From the sequence record OR427838.1: a stretch of DNA of 64,000 nucleotides, one strand, 5' to 3'. The translations under genes were made by a program, and so were the position numbers. Under the pieces are notes generated by a model. It ran no database searches. It saw only the letters and a list, made by a program, of their open reading frames with translations, and was not told where the DNA came from. Shown here in pieces: positions 4,333-27,899 of the stretch. The first letter of the stretch is position 1. Each line of letters opens with the position of its first letter. Source of the stretch: Escherichia phage fDHCT2.

Positions 4333-5313
4333 TTATTTCAGAAGTGTAACTTCAGCGATTTCGCTCCAGTCATTTTTATCGGTGGCAATGAAGTCCGCCA
4401 GATAAAGAGCCGTACGTAATGATACGTTACGAAGACGAGATACATTGGCCTTCATCCATGCTAGAGCTTGATAAGTCTCAGCATCAGTCAGACCTCGGTT
4501 TTGCATCATATCAGTGGACAGGATAACGTCTTCAACACGAACCATAATCTCTTCATTCGAGTGAACTCCGAGGTCTAAGTAAACTGAACGAGATACTAAA
4601 GCCTGGAGGTGTGGAGCAAGTTTAGTGCCACGTTCTAATTCACGGTCAATATCAACGTTGGTGATGAACACGATGGTGCCTTCATATTCGAATTCTTTAT
4701 CGATATTTTTATCATCGAGGTAAGAACTTGAAGTGCTCCAGCACACCTTACGTTTTTCACCGGTATCCAATGCCGCTTTTAACAGGTTCAGGATATCCAT
4801 ATCAGAGAATACATCGACATCATCGATAAGAAGAACACTATTAGGGCCGCGGTTATTCCAAAGCTGCTCGTAAAGACCGATTCCACTAATCTTTCCGTTG
4901 ATTGATTTATATTCGATAGTTTCATTTTCGTGGGCATTCTGTAATGCTTTATCCAAAGAATACGTTTTACCAATACCTGCGGCACCAGAGATGATAAGGG
5001 AACGAATTTTACCATCGATGATTCCGTTAGTCATCATGTTCATTACTTTAAAACGTTTGTTGATGCGGTGTTTCATTTCTTCAGCGGATTCAGTAACCAC
5101 TACAGGAGCTTCAGCACCTTCCATTTCAACATCACATTTGAACACCCATATACCACGTTCAACACCATCAATCTGTACGAATACCTTACCATCACCGAGG
5201 TGAGCTTCGGATTCATGAATTTTGTTAGGGAACCAGGTTTTACCTGAACTCATGAACGTACCAGAGATTTCATTACCGCGATAGATACCTTTGTTGATTT
5301 TGATAGTTAACAT
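4333..5313 (-). CDS. P-loop NTPase (Walker A GAAGIGKTYS, Walker B LLIDDVD)
   Basis: ORF trimmed to ATG 5313 (MLTIKINKG) with GGAG SD and early promoter 5351-5379; Walker motifs read from translation. Confidence 0.6.
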   Translation of the reverse strand: MLTIKINKGIYRGNEISGTFMSSGKTWFPNKIHESEAHLGDGKVFVQIDGVERGIWVFKCDVEMEGAEAPVVVTESAEEMKHRINKRFKVMNMMTNGIIDGKIRSLIISGAAGIGKTYSLDKALQNAHENETIEYKSINGKISGIGLYEQLWNNRGPNSVLLIDDVDVFSDMDILNLLKAALDTGEKRKVCWSTSSSYLDDKNIDKEFEYEGTIVFITNVDIDRELERGTKLAPHLQALVSRSVYLDLGVHSNEEIMVRVEDVILSTDMMQNRGLTDAETYQALAWMKANVSRLRNVSLRTALYLADFIATDKNDWSEIAEVTLLK

Positions 5314-5350
5314 TATATTCTCCGTTTCACTCAGTAGATTTGATAGGTCC

Positions 5351-5379
5351 ATAATAACATGCTCTACGAGGTTGTAAAC
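5351..5379 (-). promoter_or_regulatory. early promoter (-35 GTTTAC, -10 TATTAT)
   Basis: Same architecture as other early promoters in window. Confidence 0.6.
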
Positions 5380-5394
5380 ACTTTTTTGCACTAA

Positions 5395-5420
5395 ACCCAA
5401 AAAAGGACCCCGAAGGGTCC
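5395..5420 (-). terminator. rho-independent terminator (GGACCCTTCGGGGTCC + U-run on minus strand)
   Basis: GC hairpin with UUCG loop followed by T-run in transcript sense. Confidence 0.6.
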
Positions 5421-5644
5421 TAAATTGCGCTCCAATAATTATGGAAGCGGATATTATTGATAGCCCAGTTAATACAACGTCTTATCTGCTTAGTCGTAGG
5501 CTTGCATACGTACTTGAAATTGATTCTTCTACCGGTTTCTCTACAAACTACTTCAAGATACCAACGACAGGTTTTATGAGGTCTTCCATATGACAGGAAA
5601 ACCTTGATTTCTTCTTTAACGGTAATAAGAGTTGTGGTTGTCAA
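5420..5644 (-). CDS. small Cys-rich protein (74 aa)
   Basis: ORF between NTase gene and terminator hairpin; weak. Confidence 0.35.
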   Translation of the reverse strand: MTTTTLITVKEEIKVFLSYGRPHKTCRWYLEVVCRETGRRINFKYVCKPTTKQIRRCINWAINNIRFHNYWSAI

Positions 5645-6626
5645 GATACACCTCTTCGACGAACTTGTCCCAGAACTTCATGTCCACCTTCGCAGGCATA
5701 CCGTTCTTAGCAGCCCAGATGGCATTAGTTTCGACTTCATCAACTATAGCTTCAAGTTCAGCCTGCACATCTTTAAAAGCATGTAACCCCTGTTTGATTT
5801 CAAGGATAAATGGCGCAGTACGTAAAGGGTATTGAAGGTCACCAGTTTGATAGATTTCCTTCAACTGGTATCCGGCCCTATAAGCATGACTCAGAGCTTT
5901 CCAGTCAATACCTTCATTGGCTTCTGCCTTACGAGCACGTTCACCATATTCGGCGTCAAGCTTATTCAGAGATTGCTTGAGCTCGATTAATGACAAAGTA
6001 GTCTGATATTTACGTCCGAGAACAGTATAGAACGTTTGTGGGCCTGTTTTCTCATGGTTATGGAATACCCATTCACAGAATTCGTTTTCAGGGAGTCGAT
6101 GTTTGATATCTTCTACCTTAGTGCGACGTTGTTTAGTGGAACCATCTTCTTGATAATCGACCCACTGTTCAGGAATCTGGTTAACAATTGCCAGTACACC
6201 ACGTAAAGCGGCCAGACGAGAACCTTTAACACCATATTTAGAAGCTTGCTTACGGACGTACCCTAAATAGGCTTTCATGTTGGTTGTATAGAAACGCGAA
6301 CGGTTGTCTTGGATAAATTTCCATACGTCAGGTAAATCAGATTTAACCACCATTTCAGGTGGGGTGTGGAGCATATCCAGAGCAACGGTTTCGCCATCAG
6401 CAGCCAGTTTAAAGAAATATTTCAGGCTATAAAGCTCATGGTCAACATCATCTTTAGTGTTTTTGGAAGCAGTGTTATTCGTGTTCAGGTTGGTATGGTT
6501 CATAGCCGTACCTAACAGAATATCACGCGGATGTGGAACAAAGATTTCTTTAAAATCGATATCAGATTCCGGAGTACTTGTTCCATAAAGGTGGCTACCG
6601 AAGTAGCCTTTCATAACTGTTCTCAT
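5616..6626 (-). CDS. nucleotidyltransferase-fold protein (GSHLYGTSTPESDIDF motif)
   Basis: Pol-beta-type NTase signature GS-x9-DxD near N-terminus; start ATG 6626 overlaps upstream stop as ATGA. Confidence 0.6.
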   Translation of the reverse strand: MRTVMKGYFGSHLYGTSTPESDIDFKEIFVPHPRDILLGTAMNHTNLNTNNTASKNTKDDVDHELYSLKYFFKLAADGETVALDMLHTPPEMVVKSDLPDVWKFIQDNRSRFYTTNMKAYLGYVRKQASKYGVKGSRLAALRGVLAIVNQIPEQWVDYQEDGSTKQRRTKVEDIKHRLPENEFCEWVFHNHEKTGPQTFYTVLGRKYQTTLSLIELKQSLNKLDAEYGERARKAEANEGIDWKALSHAYRAGYQLKEIYQTGDLQYPLRTAPFILEIKQGLHAFKDVQAELEAIVDEVETNAIWAAKNGMPAKVDMKFWDKFVEEVYLDNHNSYYR

Positions 6627-7075
6627 TCTTTGTTCTCGAAGTGGATTACAGGACACATCTTAGATTTACGAGCTTTAATGTATTGAATAACGATATTTTC
6701 TTTAGTTTCTCGGCCTTCACGCTCAGCTTGAATACGTTGCCATTCCTTTTCTTCTCTACGGGCATCATACCATGCGTGTAAATTCATCGCACCAAATGCC
6801 AAACCAATGGATAGCGCAATAATAAGAGCTATTGCAATCAACCCTAAAACAAACCCTAGACTCAACAGAACAGGAGTACTTAATACAAAGAAATGCTCTA
6901 ATACACCAGCTCCTGCAACAGTTAATCCAAAAAGCGTACTACCTGCAACAACAGCACAAGCAAAACAAGCCCAAATCATTTTCCAGAAATATGCACATAA
7001 AGAGTGTGGTCGAGAATGGCTGTCATAAAAATGGTCGTGTAATTTAACGTGCCAAGAGTTTGAATTGATAATCAT
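6623..7075 (-). CDS. integral membrane protein (150 aa)
   Basis: Long hydrophobic stretches followed by basic C-terminus. Confidence 0.55.
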   Translation of the reverse strand: MIINSNSWHVKLHDHFYDSHSRPHSLCAYFWKMIWACFACAVVAGSTLFGLTVAGAGVLEHFFVLSTPVLLSLGFVLGLIAIALIIALSIGLAFGAMNLHAWYDARREEKEWQRIQAEREGRETKENIVIQYIKARKSKMCPVIHFENKE

Positions 7076-9436: not shown

Positions 9437-9715
9437 TTATAGCTTTTTAAGCTTACGACAATAAGAATAGAACACGTCGTTAAAATTATGCTCAACCCAA
9501 TTCCTCTGTATAGGCGAGGTAATGGAAAGCATATAATGGGCTTTAATTAAATCCATCCCATTTTTATTAGGACATTCTTTATTATTAGCATTATACGTCG
9601 CCGCTACAACCTCTATCTCTCTTTTGTAAGCCACATCATCCATGATAGGCGAAAGAACAATATAAGAAATAGCCACAGCGAACGCTAGAATTAAAATCTT
9701 TGAATTTAGGTCCAT
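9437..9715 (-). CDS. small membrane/secreted protein (rI.1 position)
   Basis: 92-aa ORF with hydrophobic N-terminus. Confidence 0.5.
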   Translation of the reverse strand: MDLNSKILILAFAVAISYIVLSPIMDDVAYKREIEVVAATYNANNKECPNKNGMDLIKAHYMLSITSPIQRNWVEHNFNDVFYSYCRKLKKL

Positions 9716-9722
9716 AGTACCC

Positions 9723-10295
9723 TCAACTCGTTATTTCTATCCAGTGCTTCCTGCACAATGACACGTAAGAATCGTTGCCACCTATAGAAACTTGGGCTCC
9801 GTCCTTAATTGCGACACCATCTTGGACCCTAGCAGTCATAGTAGCTTTACGGCCGCAATGGCACACACCTTTGTACTCAACGAGTTTATCTGCCGTAGCG
9901 AGTAATTCAGCAGAACCAGGAAACAGTTTACCCTGAAAATCAGTTCTTAGCCCATAGCACATAACTGGAACATTATAATTGTCTACTATCTTTGCCAGTT
10001 GTTTTATCTGTGCAGGTTCTAAGAACTGCGCTTCATCCACAAATACACAGTGGATATCTTTTTGAGATTCAGCCCAACGATAGAACTCGTATAGGTCCAT
10101 ATCCGGAGTCACTGCATTAGCCTCTTGACTAATCCCTATACGAGACGAAATGGTATGGCTTGATTCTCTATTGTCTATCGCAGGCTTTAAAAGGAGCACG
10201 CCCATACCACGTTCTTTGTAGTTATGAGCTGCCGTTAGCAATGAAGCGGTCTTACCTGAGTTCATTGCCGCATAGTGAAACATCAAACTTGCCAT
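9723..10295 (-). CDS. tk: thymidine kinase
   Basis: P-loop NSGKTASLL, VFVDEAQF, C-terminal CxCG zinc motif; typical Tk length (190 aa). Confidence 0.9.
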   Translation of the reverse strand: MASLMFHYAAMNSGKTASLLTAAHNYKERGMGVLLLKPAIDNRESSHTISSRIGISQEANAVTPDMDLYEFYRWAESQKDIHCVFVDEAQFLEPAQIKQLAKIVDNYNVPVMCYGLRTDFQGKLFPGSAELLATADKLVEYKGVCHCGRKATMTARVQDGVAIKDGAQVSIGGNDSYVSLCRKHWIEITS

Positions 10296-10304
10296 ATCAC
10301 CTTC

Positions 10305-10511
10305 TTAAAGCGTATTCACATAAGCAATTAATTCGTTTTCTTTCTCATCAAATCTATTAGCAAATTCTTCCAGATGTTCGGCATCTATCGGGCCATATTC
10401 ATCGTAAAAAGCGTTTGCTTCTGTATGCTCATCCAAAAGCTCATGGATAAGCTCAAACAATTTATCTTTCTGTTCTTTACTCAGACTCATAACCATTGCA
10501 CCTTTAAGCAA
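10305..10511 (-). CDS. small acidic hypothetical protein
   Basis: 68-aa ORF. Confidence 0.45.
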   Translation of the reverse strand: MLKGAMVMSLSKEQKDKLFELIHELLDEHTEANAFYDEYGPIDAEHLEEFANRFDEKENELIAYVNTL

Positions 10512-10699
10512 TATTCTTCTACATGCTGTTTACGTTTATTTTTATCTATAAAAGTATATTCAACATATTCACCGATATACCATTTATCAGTGTTGTGTTG
10601 ACTTTTTATAGGGCATTTAGTTACTCGGGTTTCGGTCCAGCGCCGAATAATTTCAGCTTTATTTTTAGGGTCAAATGGATGCGGGTAATGTGCTTTCAT
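10487..10699 (-). CDS. small hypothetical protein
   Basis: 70-aa ORF. Confidence 0.4.
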   Translation of the reverse strand: MKAHYPHPFDPKNKAEIIRRWTETRVTKCPIKSQHNTDKWYIGEYVEYTFIDKNKRKQHVEEYCLKVQWL

Positions 10700-11150
10700 A
10701 ATCCACCACTATTAAATCAATATCAGGAGTAAACATGTCGATTAATTTAGAAACCTTGTCCCAATCGCCGCCAGCAATACCACAACCTATGCGCGGAATA
10801 TAAATTCTTGGTTTAAACAAAAGGGTTTCTGCTTGTAGATTTAATTCTATCATACAGTTTACTAAAGCACCGTAATCAAGATTAGGGCCTGGTTCGTATT
10901 GTGTGTATAAATTATAGCACATTGCAAATCCATTAGGCTTATGTTTAAAAGCAATAGACATATCACCCAATTTATCTCGAGAGCCGTATTCGGTAGTAGT
11001 CTTATCAATTTCTAAAATTTTAGGATAAGCCTTAGCCAATTGTCCAGCTACACCTGAACCCATAGTGTGAAAACAATTACACCCATGTGCAATAATATTA
11101 CCTTGGAGAAACAGGGCGACGATATCGCCCTTAATATAATCAATAATCAT
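10671..11150 (-). CDS. macro domain (ADP-ribose binding/processing) protein
   Basis: N-terminal IKGDIVALFLQGNIIAHGCNCFHTMGSGVAGQL resembles macro-domain Gly-rich ADP-ribose pocket. Confidence 0.55.
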   Translation of the reverse strand: MIIDYIKGDIVALFLQGNIIAHGCNCFHTMGSGVAGQLAKAYPKILEIDKTTTEYGSRDKLGDMSIAFKHKPNGFAMCYNLYTQYEPGPNLDYGALVNCMIELNLQAETLLFKPRIYIPRIGCGIAGGDWDKVSKLIDMFTPDIDLIVVDYESTLPASI

Positions 11151-11503
11151 TTAGAGTTTAGCCCTCGATTGTAAGAGTCAACGAGTCTGTCTACCATAGA
11201 CGCGCACATTTCTTTGTACTTTTTATCAGACGGAACACATTCAGTAACGTTTAGACGTTGCTCGTATCTTTTAGAAAGAGTTTTCTCTTTCATTCGGCGA
11301 TGCTCGACGTCGTTCTGTCCATCTTTAAAAGCAGCTGTTATTTTTGAACTGAATTCAATAATACATTCAGTATTACTAGGATGACAATAATCTTTTGCTG
11401 TACGGGTAGCATACTCGACAATTGAATTATTGCTATCATCAACTTGTGACGCTAATACTCCCGGAGCGATCAACATAAGCGCTATAGTCATCTGTTTAAT
11501 CAT
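11147..11503 (-). CDS. small secreted protein (signal peptide, several Cys)
   Basis: 118-aa ORF with N-terminal hydrophobic signal-like segment. Confidence 0.5.
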   Translation of the reverse strand: MIKQMTIALMLIAPGVLASQVDDSNNSIVEYATRTAKDYCHPSNTECIIEFSSKITAAFKDGQNDVEHRRMKEKTLSKRYEQRLNVTECVPSDKKYKEMCASMVDRLVDSYNRGLNSK

Positions 11504-12043
11504 TTAATATACCGCCTCAAACATCTTTTTAGATTTTAGGTAATTGGCCTTTTCTAGAACTTCAGAAGCATATTTACTGCCTGCTTTGACGTCCCAGCCC
11601 GCATTATAAGAAGCAATCGCTTTTCTCAGGTCACCTTTGTGAACACCAATCCAATAAGACAGTTCAATGTAGGCCCAAGAGGCACTGTTCTGTCGTTTTT
11701 GGACCATACGGATTATTTCTTTATCAGACATCTTCCAACCTACCTGTTGAACACGACTTCTTAACGTAGGCAAGTAATTTTGGAACATGCCATAAGCATG
11801 GTGCTTATCTTTATTTAAACCCTGATTAATTCCGGCGGATGATTCCTGCCATAGTAATCCGGCCATGATATATCCTAATCCTTTTTGATTAGGGTTTTCT
11901 TTGAACTTTCCCGACTTTTGGTATTGTTCACCGAAAGCATACGCATAATGTAAATTATCGAGTTGTTCATTACTGAAAGTAGGCTCTACGCTATGGGCAG
12001 ACATACTAACTGTCAATAGTAAAGTGGCTAATACTTTTTTCAT
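11504..12043 (-). CDS. secreted lytic-transglycosylase-like protein
   Basis: Signal peptide; motifs WQESSAG, YGMFQ, SYNAGW suggestive of SLT fold. Confidence 0.45.
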   Translation of the reverse strand: MKKVLATLLLTVSMSAHSVEPTFSNEQLDNLHYAYAFGEQYQKSGKFKENPNQKGLGYIMAGLLWQESSAGINQGLNKDKHHAYGMFQNYLPTLRSRVQQVGWKMSDKEIIRMVQKRQNSASWAYIELSYWIGVHKGDLRKAIASYNAGWDVKAGSKYASEVLEKANYLKSKKMFEAVY

Positions 12044-12055
12044 GAGACCTCATTA

Positions 12056-12514
12056 TTAAAGATAGATTACTTTCGTGCTGGTTTTACCTTCTAAACGTTT
12101 AGAGTTAACAAATGCCATACGACATTTTAATGAATATCCTTTATCAGGATGTTTACGATCTACGGTCATACCTAGCCATAAGGTTTTATCGGTAATTTCG
12201 AGACGCAATGGACGATACACTTTACCAGGGACAATTTCGGATTCTACATCAGGCAGAGGTTCCTGGATTAAGAATTCATGGATTTCTTTAACATGGTTAT
12301 GGAGTTGCTTGAATAAAGCAAAAACGTATTTTTCGTCGATTTCACGTTGGATAGCACGGTCCAACAAGTGATTAGAGTACTTAATAAAGAAAGCTGGGAC
12401 ACCGCTCTTGATGGCGGCTTTTTTGATGGACGCGTTAAGTTCACGAAATTCGGTTTCGAACTGACGACGTAATTTGTTGCGGCGGATGAATACTTCTGAA
12501 TTAATTTCTGACAT
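12056..12514 (-). CDS. regB: RegB endoribonuclease
   Basis: Close match to recalled T4 RegB (EVFIRRNKLRR...YSLKCRMA); start ATG 12514 with GGAG SD; early promoter 12543-12571. Confidence 0.85.
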   Translation of the reverse strand: MSEINSEVFIRRNKLRRQFETEFRELNASIKKAAIKSGVPAFFIKYSNHLLDRAIQREIDEKYVFALFKQLHNHVKEIHEFLIQEPLPDVESEIVPGKVYRPLRLEITDKTLWLGMTVDRKHPDKGYSLKCRMAFVNSKRLEGKTSTKVIYL

Positions 12515-12542
12515 TTTGTAATCTCCTGTAGTTGATAGGTTT

Positions 12543-12571
12543 ATAGTATCATGTCTACAGGAGATGTAAAC
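12543..12571 (-). promoter_or_regulatory. early promoter of regB
   Basis: GTTTAC-17-TACTAT then GGAG SD and regB ATG. Confidence 0.65.
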
Positions 12572-12575
12572 AGCT

Positions 12576-12854
12576 TTAGTACTTTTCTTCCGGTTGGAAC
12601 ACGGAACGACAAGCCCACATACTAGCTTCTTTAAGACGGTCAATTGCATTACGAATCTGGGTAATGCGTTCATGAGCCTGGTCTAGTTCTTGTTCAGAAA
12701 CCTCTTCGGTATCTAAGTTCATATAATAGGTAACATGTTCTTCTTCTAGAGCTTTAAACATCAGCCCTAACCGAACTTCAGCATCTTTAATGGCATTCAC
12801 TTTACCGATTTTATCGTCGGTATGTGGCTTGTAACCTTTGATATCTTCAATCAT
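12576..12854 (-). CDS. hypothetical protein (92 aa)
   Basis: ORF in array. Confidence 0.45.
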   Translation of the reverse strand: MIEDIKGYKPHTDDKIGKVNAIKDAEVRLGLMFKALEEEHVTYYMNLDTEEVSEQELDQAHERITQIRNAIDRLKEASMWACRSVFQPEEKY

Positions 12855-13069
12855 TTCACTTCCTCATCAGATGCAATATCATATTCTACAAAACGAAGGC
12901 CATCGTATCCACCACTAACAGAGATATACGTAGTCGGGTAAACAATTTCTTTACCATTCCATTGGCCGCCGTCCCAACATTCCAAAAAGCCTTGTTCGCC
13001 TTGTTCGTGGAACCAATCAACAAACATCTTCAGAGCTTCATCAGAGCCTTCAATTGCCAATTTAGACAT
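12851..13069 (-). CDS. small acidic hypothetical protein
   Basis: 72-aa ORF, overlapping stops and starts. Confidence 0.45.
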   Translation of the reverse strand: MSKLAIEGSDEALKMFVDWFHEQGEQGFLECWDGGQWNGKEIVYPTTYISVSGGYDGLRFVEYDIASDEEVK

Positions 13070-13358
13070 ATTTCTTCCAGCCAGAAATCATATGAATCTC
13101 TTGGTCGTATGTCAAGAGACTACGAGTTATAATACCCTTACAAGGCCCTGAGATGAACTCGAGAGTGAAGTAAGGAACCTGTTTCATTAATCGGATACTA
13201 GGAGCATGACATCTAAAACGAGAGCCCTTAAAGGGCCCTGACATGAATACATATTCTAATGGATAGAAATAAGCATATTCGAAATTTGCAGTAAGGTCCT
13301 CTCTTCGAACCTTACGTGAGAAATAACAGAACTCAAAAAGTTCTTCATCAGTCATCAT
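13062..13358 (-). CDS. hypothetical protein (98 aa)
   Basis: ORF in array. Confidence 0.45.
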   Translation of the reverse strand: MMTDEELFEFCYFSRKVRREDLTANFEYAYFYPLEYVFMSGPFKGSRFRCHAPSIRLMKQVPYFTLEFISGPCKGIITRSLLTYDQEIHMISGWKKYV

Positions 13359-13882
13359 TGCATTCCTATCACAAAGAACAGCGGCAGAGGTTTAGAACCC
13401 TGGCACATAAATTTGTTAATCATTACCTGGTAAGCTTCATAGAACTTATCCATCGATGGAAGGCGCATTGGCTCTTCGATAATAATCAATAATCGAGTAA
13501 CTGATAGACCACGATACTTATGGAAGTTATCTTCGTCTAAAAATGATCGCACGGTATCATATACAATAAACCCAGGACCTTCTACTTGAAGATGTGGATG
13601 AGCCTTAGAAACCCTTTTTATTACATTACAGATTTCGCGTGACCGGTGCGAAGAACTCGACATAACAATCACATCATTACCCTTGGAAACCCAATCAGCT
13701 GCGAACTGGGCAAGGGCACTTGTTTTACCTGTTTGGCGCCCGCCGTCAAGTCGAAGAGTACCAAACTCTTGCATTCTTGAAGTAGGTTCGTACCAGGTGT
13801 ATTGGTTTGAGTCTAAACGTTCAATGGCGCGTTCAGCGAAGGCGTGCATTAAGGTTAGATAAATGGGAGTTAAAAATTTCAT
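13355..13882 (-). CDS. small P-loop NTPase-like protein (GGRQTGKTS)
   Basis: Walker A-like motif in 175-aa ORF. Confidence 0.5.
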   Translation of the reverse strand: MKFLTPIYLTLMHAFAERAIERLDSNQYTWYEPTSRMQEFGTLRLDGGRQTGKTSALAQFAADWVSKGNDVIVMSSSSHRSREICNVIKRVSKAHPHLQVEGPGFIVYDTVRSFLDEDNFHKYRGLSVTRLLIIIEEPMRLPSMDKFYEAYQVMINKFMCQGSKPLPLFFVIGMQ

Positions 13883-14042
13883 AGTGGTCTCTTAGTTGTG
13901 GGGCCATTCCTTGGCACATAATTCATCCATGTATCCGTATGTAAACCCTTTACCGCACTTGGGCTCGACCTTATTACAGGTAGGGAAAGGTCCATCACTC
14001 AGAGGACGCGACGTTCATGAGGAGAGGGCCGGCTTGCCTTTA

Positions 14043-14342
14043 TTAGAAAGAACCAGAACCTCTAATTGTGTTCTGGCGACCTTTATTTTCCAATTCGGAA
14101 TGGTCGATTTCGTAGGCTTGTGCTACACCAAAAGCCTTTTTAACTTTAGCTAAAGAGCCTTTAGATGTAACAATATTAAAAGTATTACCTTTGGTAAAAT
14201 CAACCAAATCCACTTGTACACCTTGTTTACCGAGGCTTGCTACAATAGCATCAACATATTCTTGGTCTAAGGTGCCTTGGACGCCTATTTGGAATGCTTT
14301 AGGAGCTTTGGCTTCTGTAATAAATTCTTGATAAGTTTTCAT
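14043..14342 (-). CDS. internal-protein-like head protein with capsid targeting sequence ([10 protein letters not shown])
   Basis: N-terminal [11 protein letters not shown] matches the T4 IP capsid-targeting sequence; own promoter 14367-14396. Confidence 0.65.
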   Translation of the reverse strand: MKTYQEFITEAKAPKAFQIGVQGTLDQEYVDAIVASLGKQGVQVDLVDFTKGNTFNIVTSKGSLAKVKKAFGVAQAYEIDHSELENKGRQNTIRGSGSF

Positions 14343-14366
14343 ATTATTCCTTAAGTTGATAGAAGT

Positions 14367-14396
14367 ATTCTACCACGGATTTAATTAAGCGTAAAT
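14367..14396 (-). promoter_or_regulatory. early promoter (-35 ATTTAC, -10 TAGAAT) of IP-like gene
   Basis: Minus-strand hexamers with 18-nt spacer. Confidence 0.5.
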
Positions 14397-14801
14397 AGCC
14401 TTGCCATAGTGTTTGTACCAGGTAGGACGTTGTGCAATTTTTTCATCCAAACGGGCTTGTGAAATAGCGATAGAAGCTTCGTGAGGAACATAATCACCAC
14501 GGAATTCCTGAGGAATATCACTAATGTCCTGGACTGTAGTATCCTTGATATTAAAGCCACGTTTTAAACATTCGGTTATAAGCTCGATTTGACGCTTACG
14601 TAAAAATTCAAGCTTATCGTAAAAGAATGTAACATGGCCTGTACCAAGGATAAAAGTAGGGCTGATTTTAAAATCACGAACGCGTTTACCGTTAGCAACA
14701 TGCTTACGAACTGCACCGAAAACACGTGGTAATTCACGATATTCAGCCATTAAGTGTTGGTCAGCCAATTCAGATACTAAGGTAAGGTTGATACGAGTCA
14801 T
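14385..14801 (-). CDS. denV: endonuclease V (pyrimidine dimer DNA glycosylase)
   Basis: 138-aa protein near-identical to recalled T4 endo V ([28 protein letters not shown]...). Confidence 0.95.
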
Positions 14802-16407: not shown

Positions 16408-16857
16408 TCAAAAGAGCGAATCTAAAACCTTAAACATCGACGGGCCCATGACATATTTCCATTGTGGACGTTTAATCAAGGCAAAAGCATCGAATTCAGG
16501 AATCGTACGACCATCAGGGAACGTATGGTAAGCTGTACATTTGCAATCCTTGAACTGCTCGTGTTCGACAGGCACAGTATATAAGAACAGGTGTAGATTC
16601 TTATTGCTAGAATATTTGAACTCACCTAGGTCTTTCAGGAATGCAGGATCGTATGCCGTGAATCCAATCTCTTCTTCGGTTTCACGCATTGCGGCTTGAA
16701 TAGGCTCTTCGCCTGGTTCTACATGACCTTTAGGAATGTCCCATTTATGACGCATGTTCTCTGGATTACGAGAGCCTGTTACACGACCCATAACTAGTTC
16801 TTTATCAACGGTCATGAACAAAATACCGGCAGATAGTTCTTTCACTTTCTTACTCAT
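16408..16857 (-). CDS. nudE: Nudix hydrolase
   Basis: Nudix box GHVEPGEEPIQAAMRETEEEIG; start trimmed to ATG 16857 (MSKKVKEL). Confidence 0.8.
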   Translation of the reverse strand: MSKKVKELSAGILFMTVDKELVMGRVTGSRNPENMRHKWDIPKGHVEPGEEPIQAAMRETEEEIGFTAYDPAFLKDLGEFKYSSNKNLHLFLYTVPVEHEQFKDCKCTAYHTFPDGRTIPEFDAFALIKRPQWKYVMGPSMFKVLDSLF

Positions 16858-17086
16858 CGTCTCGTTTCCATGATTGGTTAAAAATATCTTGCATAATAAT
16901 TTGAAGTCTATTTTCTGATGATGGACTTTCACTATCAGACACTTGAAGCATATAGTCACCAATAGGACAGAACATATCCATATCGCTTTCTAAGTCTTCT
17001 TTAATTTTCTCTTCTGATGTTCCGGTGTCATAGGAATACAGATAAGAATCACATGACTCAGATTTAATATAAATTGCAATACTCAT
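16850..17086 (-). CDS. small acidic hypothetical protein
   Basis: 78-aa ORF. Confidence 0.45.
   Translation of the reverse strand: MSIAIYIKSESCDSYLYSYDTGTSEEKIKEDLESDMDMFCPIGDYMLQVSDSESPSSENRLQIIMQDIFNQSWKRDDE

Positions 17087-26952: not shown

Positions 26953-27899
<947 letters not shown>

Follow-up and report, generated by a model that had tools for sequence, protein, structure and literature searches.

By its position and sequence, we identify the minus-strand open reading frame at 10671..11150 of Escherichia phage fDHCT2 (OR427838.1) as the orthologue of T4 tk.4, recently renamed adfM; the coordinates refer to the window, that is, to the whole stretch of 64,000 nucleotides that was analysed. 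We believe that its product, the Dhakavirus allele of Tk.4/AdfM, is a pre-replicative stand-alone glycohydrolase that would strip DarT2-installed ADP-ribose from thymidines of single-stranded DNA by means of a Gln/Asn active site of the SCO6735 type, and we put the probability of this reading at about 0.7. Both the enzyme activity and the protection against DarTG2 are what we infer for the fDHCT2 allele. The gene has long been annotated as tk.4, which the initial annotation of this DNA did not recognise, and the orthologue already has an anti-DarTG2 role; in this respect the function is already known. What is added here is the assignment of a lysine-free active site, the separation from PhiKZ AdfM and the pattern of allele-cassette exchange.

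The frame starts with ATG and has the 159 codons that the initial annotation had given, the stop codon being included in the coordinates. The N-terminus of the translation is MIIDYIKGDIVALFLQGNIIAHGCNCFHTMGSGVAGQL, and the stretch that had been cited as a macro-domain signature, IKGDIVALFLQGNIIAHGCNCFHTMGSGVAGQL, is found at residues 6-38. A profile search, which had been suggested as a check, bears this signature out: the Pfam Macro profile (PF01661) matches the protein over profile positions 2-117 of 118 with E=1.3e-7 and 32.1 bits, above the gathering threshold of 22 bits. The protein also matches PHROG 335 (E=2.6e-71); it has 787 homologues at E<=1e-3 in a collection of 5.8 billion proteins, and tblastn with the protein matches 2768 phage records. 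The frame is a real gene, a chance reading frame being excluded, and its product belongs to the macro superfamily.

Over 2.1 kb around the gene, the sequence shares 96% identity with Escherichia phages dhaeg and JS98 (Dhakavirus, Tevenvirinae), and on these sequence grounds the window is assigned to a Dhakavirus, that is, a JS98-like T-even phage. The JS98 counterpart is annotated as tk.4, "phosphatase; contains A1pp phosphatase motif", and lies between tk.3 and vs, after which come vs.1 and regB; the order tk.3-tk.4-vs-vs.1-regB is the same in fDHCT2, JS98 and T4. Synteny with the T4 pre-replicative region makes the label "early region", which the initial annotation had used, consistent with the position of the gene in the leftward tk-vs-regB block. 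T4 Tk.4 (NP_049723) aligns with the fDHCT2 protein at 57% identity over 155 of 155 residues without gaps (E=2e-69). The two have in common the vs/tk.3 locus, the length class, PHROG 335 and the invariant H22, N25, Q84, G122 and G124. They differ in length (155 residues in T4 and 159 in fDHCT2), in allele class and in 43% of residues, mostly past residue 50.

The start of tk.4 overlaps the stop of vs in the tetranucleotide ATGA (11147..11150, minus strand), and the same 4-nt overlap is present in JS98 and T4. Considering this overlap and the residue-for-residue N-terminal alignment with T4 Tk.4, the frame and the start are well supported. A GAGGG is found on the minus strand 11 nt upstream of the start (11166..11162), and translational coupling of tk.4 to vs appears likely from the layout. 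At the other end, tk.4 overlaps the start of the tk.3 homologue by 29 nt (10671..10699, minus strand), which is also the 3' border of the exchanged allele cassette described below; the tk.3 homologue itself is a DUF7202 protein (Pfam, 2.5e-37). Since both of its ends overlap neighbouring genes, tk.4 belongs to a tightly packed string transcribed leftward. The upstream vs (11147..11503, minus strand), which encodes the modifier of valyl-tRNA synthetase, shares no more than 47% identity with T4 Vs. In T4, vs is the most depleted gene in minimal medium (bioRxiv 10.1101/2025.11.20.689424). Because tk.4 is probably coupled to vs in translation, possible polar effects in knockouts are worth considering.

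The anti-DarTG2 role of the T4 gene is known from genetics. A T4 transposon library grown on a DarTG2 host gave one significant hit, tk.4, and T4 became sensitive to DarTG2 when the gene was cleanly deleted, after which it was renamed adfM, anti-DarT factor Macrodomain; the removal of ADP-ribose from DNA by T4 AdfM was inferred there from structural similarity only (bioRxiv 10.1101/2025.11.20.689424). T2 and T4 without adfN are still resistant to DarTG2 (PMC11825919), which is consistent with the tk.4 phenotype. The suggestion in the initial annotation that the protein counters a host ADP-ribosylating defence agrees with this reported role of the orthologue. Against our reading it should be said that the T4 allele, the one with the DarTG2 phenotype, is just 57% identical to the fDHCT2 allele.

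Structure prediction, through which the macrodomain assignment could have failed, gave a confident macrodomain fold, with ADP-ribosyl hydrolases as the closest PDB entries. The AlphaFold2 model, built from 77 homologues, has a mean pLDDT of 94.2 and a pTM of 0.89, with disorder confined to the last four residues; it is a three-layer alpha/beta/alpha fold with a central mixed sheet and superimposes on solved macrodomains. Its structural neighbours are BT1257 (score 18.1), the M. tuberculosis DarG macrodomain (17.3), yeast Poa1p (17.1), human TARG1 (16.6) and Thermosipho DarTG (16.5), followed by the coronavirus X domain (13.5) as the next class. Foldseek returns the same set, with human TARG1/OARD1 as the best match. 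In a search of the PDB with a profile of the Tk.4 family, the proteins found at E<=1e-3 are solely BT1257 (3e-19), TARG1 (2e-16), SCO6735 (3e-15), Poa1p (4e-15) and DarG (2e-12). The protein is a stand-alone macrodomain of the ALC1-like class (TARG1/DarG/SCO6735/Poa1p), to which it is nearer in both sequence and structure than to the MacroD-type, viral X-domain, PARG or macroH2A classes.

Poa1p, an ADP-ribose-1''-phosphate phosphatase, is thus among the close matches in sequence as well as structure, and by sequence the 159-aa protein is about equally near Poa1p and SCO6735, which counts against our reading. The substrate range of ALC1-like macrodomains is broad and takes in protein Glu/Asp-ADPr, O-acetyl-ADPr as well as nucleic-acid phosphate-ADPr, and the primary substrate of Tk.4 could be other than thymidine-ADPr. 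One may ask if the historical name "A1pp phosphatase" is literally correct, i.e., if the protein is a Poa1p-like phosphatase or an O-acetyl-ADP-ribose deacetylase that clears NAD-derived by-products of RNA repair or sirtuins. We consider this unlikely. The T4 knockout phenotype is specific to DarTG2 and would be left unexplained; the NCBIfam model for the deacetylase, with its cut-off of 291 bits, gives 15.6; and both activities often occur as side reactions in macrodomains. Nor does T-even infection have an obvious source of the phosphatase substrate, since ADP-ribose-1''-phosphate comes from 2'-phosphotransferase steps of the Tpt1/KptA type and the tRNA-repair route of T4 (Pnkp/Rnl) is without them.

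The conservation of the active site is counted in favour of our reading. In an alignment of 77-78 homologues, 14 positions are invariant (H22, G23, N25, C26, G33, A35, L61, N80, Y82, Q84, P119, G122, G124 and W130), and this set is unchanged whether or not T4 is included. The codons of H22-G23-C24-N25 lie at 11076..11087 (minus strand), H22, G23 and N25 being invariant; their equivalence to H24, V25 and N27 of SCO6735 was read from HMMER alignments. Asn25 is the counterpart of SCO6735 Asn27 and of PhiKZ AdfM Asn23. In SCO6735, this conserved macrodomain asparagine puts both the distal ribose and the catalytic residue in position (PMC9411070), and the N23A mutant of PhiKZ AdfM has reduced activity (PMC13309987). 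The GxG loop after strand 2, which lines the ADP-ribose cleft, is encoded by the codons of G31-S32-G33 (11052..11060, minus strand; G33 invariant, G31 conserved in at least 90%). Here "tmgsg" of Tk.4 aligns with "gwgkg" of SCO6735, so that Ser32 stands at the DNA-positioning Lys34.

The codon of the invariant Gln84 is at 10899..10901 (minus strand), and the residue occupies the position of TARG1 Lys84 and DarG Lys80, which are catalytic, and of SCO6735 Gln85. LYTQ84 pairs without gaps with LITK84 of TARG1, both in hhalign (98.5% probability) and in the alignment from the hmmsearch of the PDB with the family profile; the corresponding glutamine of a close homologue aligns with DarG Lys80 and SCO6735 Gln85, and in the profile alignment Gln84 pairs with the glutamine of NMIGQ in BT1257. 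Pairwise HMMER against BT1257 places a loop gap before NLYTQ and leaves Gln84 unpaired; the profile alignment was used instead, and hhalign to TARG1 agrees with it. The phosphate-binding loop G122-C-G124-I-A126-G-G128 (codons at 10767..10787, minus strand) has G122 and G124 at the positions of SCO6735 G126 and G128. In this region P119, G122 and G124 are invariant and A126, G127 and G128 are conserved in at least 90% of the 77 homologues. A126 aligns with the catalytic Asp125 of TARG1 in both hhalign and the profile alignment.

SCO6735, itself a stand-alone macrodomain, takes DarT-installed ADP-ribose off thymidine and does so more rapidly than DarG or TARG1; Q85A is inactive, N27S almost inactive and G128E impaired; the proposed mechanism involves an activated water without a lysine, while Lys34 and Lys89 position the DNA (PMC9411070). 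A mobile loop five residues longer than in DarG and TARG1 is a mark of the SCO6735/BT1257 subclass (PMC9411070). Like SCO6735 (PDB 5E3B) and BT1257 (2FG1/2AFC), the fDHCT2 protein has the catalytic set, Q84, N25, G122 and G124 standing for SCO6735 Q85, N27, G126 and G128. Its mobile loop after the glutamine differs, being 5-6 residues shorter and of TARG1 length: 8 residues separate Q84 from Y93, where SCO6735/BT1257 have 13-14, with a gap of 6 to BT1257 and of 0 to TARG1 in the profile alignment. The DNA-positioning Lys34 and Lys89 are replaced by Ser32 and Gly88. Judged by these alignments, the protein has the catalytic residues of the SCO6735/BT1257 subclass and has neither its long loop nor its lysines, and the Tk.4 family is lysine-free like SCO6735 and short-looped like TARG1. 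Considering that the two lysines and the long mobile loop are absent, the recognition of DNA may differ from that of SCO6735, a point against our reading.

A mainly non-catalytic role has to be weighed against these residues. SCO6735 Q85A, DarG K80A and TARG1 K84A, although catalytically dead, remain able to inhibit DarT in vitro (PMC9411070), and the protein might act as a stoichiometric DarT2-binding inhibitor or soak up molecules that contain ADP-ribose; the exchange of two divergent allele classes among phages would suit co-evolution with a protein partner. Nevertheless, the C-terminal DarT-binding domain of DarG is absent from the 159-aa protein, and the residues that SCO6735 needs for hydrolysis are all invariant in the Tk.4 family, as one would expect of an enzyme, although some of them also serve ligand binding. 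We hold such a role to be very improbable.

DarG and TARG1 differ from the fDHCT2 protein in their catalytic residues. The DarG of DarTG2 (PDB 5M3I, 5M31/5M3E, 7OMU) has the catalytic Lys80 where fDHCT2 has Gln84. The assignment to DarG proper was rejected: the corresponding model (NCBIfam NF048014, PADLOC DarG) gives 27.3 bits against an equivalog cut-off of 250 and is matched only at positions 1-142 of 338, the 159-aa protein being without the C-terminal DarT-binding domain; the neighbours of tk.4 are vs and tk.3, with no darT adjoining. Near two distant homologues, in a Pelagimonas chromosome and in another phage contig, neither DarT nor another ADP-ribosyltransferase was found (2 neighbourhoods). 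The catalytic loop of human TARG1/OARD1 (PDB 4J5S) is equally long and aligns without gaps, but the Lys84/Asp125 dyad of TARG1 is replaced by Gln84/Ala126. The fDHCT2 protein probably follows the lysine-free catalysis of SCO6735, unlike the lysine-dependent chemistry of DarG and TARG1.

The comparison with gp104 of PhiKZ, the "AdfM" of chimalliviruses, requires clarification. It is likewise a phage-encoded orphan macrodomain acting against DarTG2, and it removes ADP-ribose from a DarT2-modified TNTC oligonucleotide in vitro (PMC13309987). It differs in being imported into the phage nucleus (PMC13309987) and in keeping the DarG-type lysine (FPTK in the translated published sequence), where fDHCT2 has Gln84. 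As close kin it was rejected: BLASTP gives 8e-4 over 33 residues, hhalign gives 96% with 24% identity, and the catalytic residue is another one. To judge from these comparisons, Tk.4 and PhiKZ gp104 are different lineages of the same class, and their common name denotes function, not close kinship.

We propose the following course of events. Tk.4 would be made before or during DNA replication, being co-transcribed and probably translationally coupled with vs. It would bind the ADP-ribose that host DarT2 puts on the thymidine of single-stranded TNTC motifs as the phage DNA replicates; Gln84, held by Asn25, would orient the distal ribose, and the G122/G124 loop would hold the diphosphate. Hydrolysis of the ribose-thymine bond would free the ADP-ribose and leave the DNA replicable again, and the abortive defence by DarTG2 would fail. 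A minor observation concerns the NUDIX hydrolase encoded at 16411..16962 on the minus strand (Pfam 1.3e-14), which a comparison of gene positions with JS98 marks as the counterpart of NudE/e.1. For T4 NudE, hydrolysis of ADP-ribose has been reported. It is a speculation that the NudE counterpart serves as a sink for the ADP-ribose freed by Tk.4.

The same fold could serve the reversal of ADP-ribosylation on protein or RNA, not DNA. TARG1 and SCO6735, which are close structural relatives, also de-modify proteins, and T-even phages encode three ADP-ribosyltransferases of their own, Alt, ModA and ModB, whose control had been offered by the initial annotation as a second possible role. The latter proposal has become less likely: these transferases modify arginine, arginine-ADPr is removed by enzymes of the ARH/DraG type, and this linkage lies outside the known chemistry of ALC1-like macrodomains; to our knowledge, its cleavage is not reported for any macrodomain of the TARG1/DarG class. 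Another variant is the countering of toxins such as the mRNA modification of the CmdTAC type. CmdTAC blocks even wild-type T4 with its tk.4 (PMC11618068), and we conclude for this reason that Tk.4 does not neutralise this system. Moreover, T4 tk.4 is dispensable on plain K-12 and depleted only with DarTG2 (bioRxiv 10.1101/2025.11.20.689424). On the whole, we regard protein or RNA reversal as improbable and retain the removal of ADP-ribose from thymidine as the preferred reading.

DarTG systems stop phages via ADP-ribosylation of phage DNA. Orphan phage erasers, AdfN against DarTG1 and AdfM against DarTG2, account for the resistance of T-even phages, and with its JS98-type adfM allele fDHCT2 is predicted to be resistant to DarTG2, which is relevant to host-range prediction and the design of phage therapy. 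The apparent independence of T-even AdfM from a catalytic lysine such as that of DarG affects the mechanistic reading of the T4 result. The suitable catalytically dead controls for the T-even enzyme are Q84A or N25A instead of a lysine mutant.

As concerns expression, a candidate sigma-70-type (early) promoter, TTGACA-17-TATGAT, is found on the minus strand at 13115..13087, upstream of vs.x-regB-vs.1-vs-tk.4; it agrees with the consensus in 11 of 12 positions and is the best promoter match in the region 9500-14500. A scan of this region found no terminator-like site on the minus strand between the candidate and tk.4. Promoter-like sites in the region number 14 against 15.7 expected from shuffles, and a dedicated tk.4 promoter is without statistical support; we treat the candidate at 13087..13115 as a lead only. 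The search of the 64-kb window for MotA boxes found none directly upstream of tk.4, while in the window as a whole MotA-box-like motifs are enriched (16 against 5.8 expected; none of 100 shuffles reached 16). One such middle-promoter motif, TGCTTTAGTAAACTGTATGATAGAAT, falls within tk.4 itself (10844..10869, minus strand) and could be a candidate driver of the tk.3-tk genes downstream.

The distribution of tblastn identities of tk.4 across phage records is bimodal. The Tequatrovirus vB_VIPECOOM03 (OQ721911) was compared with T4 and fDHCT2: its regB, vs.1, vs, tk.3 and tk are 94-99% identical to T4 at the amino acid level and 47-77% identical to fDHCT2, whereas its tk.4 is 57% identical to T4 and 94% identical to fDHCT2. 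Sliding nucleotide identity of vB_VIPECOOM03 to T4 and fDHCT2 switches sharply at about 11110 and about 10700-10650, i.e., at the borders of tk.4. In 314 phage records the 159-aa allele occurs over its full length, and many of these records are Tequatroviruses (ime09, RB9, Sf24 among them); in T2, T4, RB18 and RB68 the match is confined to the first 150 nt. The same search brought up roughly 560 tk.4 loci of Tevenvirinae. These identities indicate that tk.4 has at least two allele classes, 57% identical, which are traded as gene-sized cassettes between Dhakavirus and Tequatrovirus, and the conserved 5' third of the gene is likely the crossover site. In Tequatroviruses that otherwise share 94-99% identity with T4, the 159-aa allele stands at the locus of the T4-type one, and this replacement speaks for functional equivalence of the two.

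It is tempting to go further and to view the tk.4/adfM locus as a diversifying anti-defence hot spot, with alleles that possibly differ in specificity for DarT2 variants or ADP-ribose linkages, and the T-even enzyme as a third subtype of DNA-ADP-ribose erasers (lysine-free and with a short loop of the TARG1 type), mechanistically distinct from PhiKZ AdfM and DarG; this extension is doubtful at present, although less so than the alternatives considered above. The cassette-like exchange of alleles as such presents a small and testable case of how an anti-defence locus evolves by modules. Another swapped patch, smaller than that of tk.4, was observed at 10250..10480, where fDHCT2 and vB_VIPECOOM03 are about 85% identical in nucleotides and vB_VIPECOOM03 and T4 about 50%, the flanks showing the opposite. 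The open reading frame in this patch (10305..10511, minus strand) is tk.2-like and matches Pfam DUF7438.

Several other genes of the window may be mentioned. The anti-CBASS nuclease Acb1 (gene 57B) is encoded at 27225..27677 on the minus strand (Pfam PF23474, 8.4e-59) and is a second anti-defence gene in the window. The nrdC.11 homologue (5619..6656, minus strand) matches Pfam RlaP (2.3e-11), the RNA repair pathway DNA polymerase beta family nucleotidyltransferase. In the same Pfam search, the adjoining nrdC.10 homologue (4336..5400, minus strand) gave weak AAA/STAND-NTPase matches below the Pfam thresholds.
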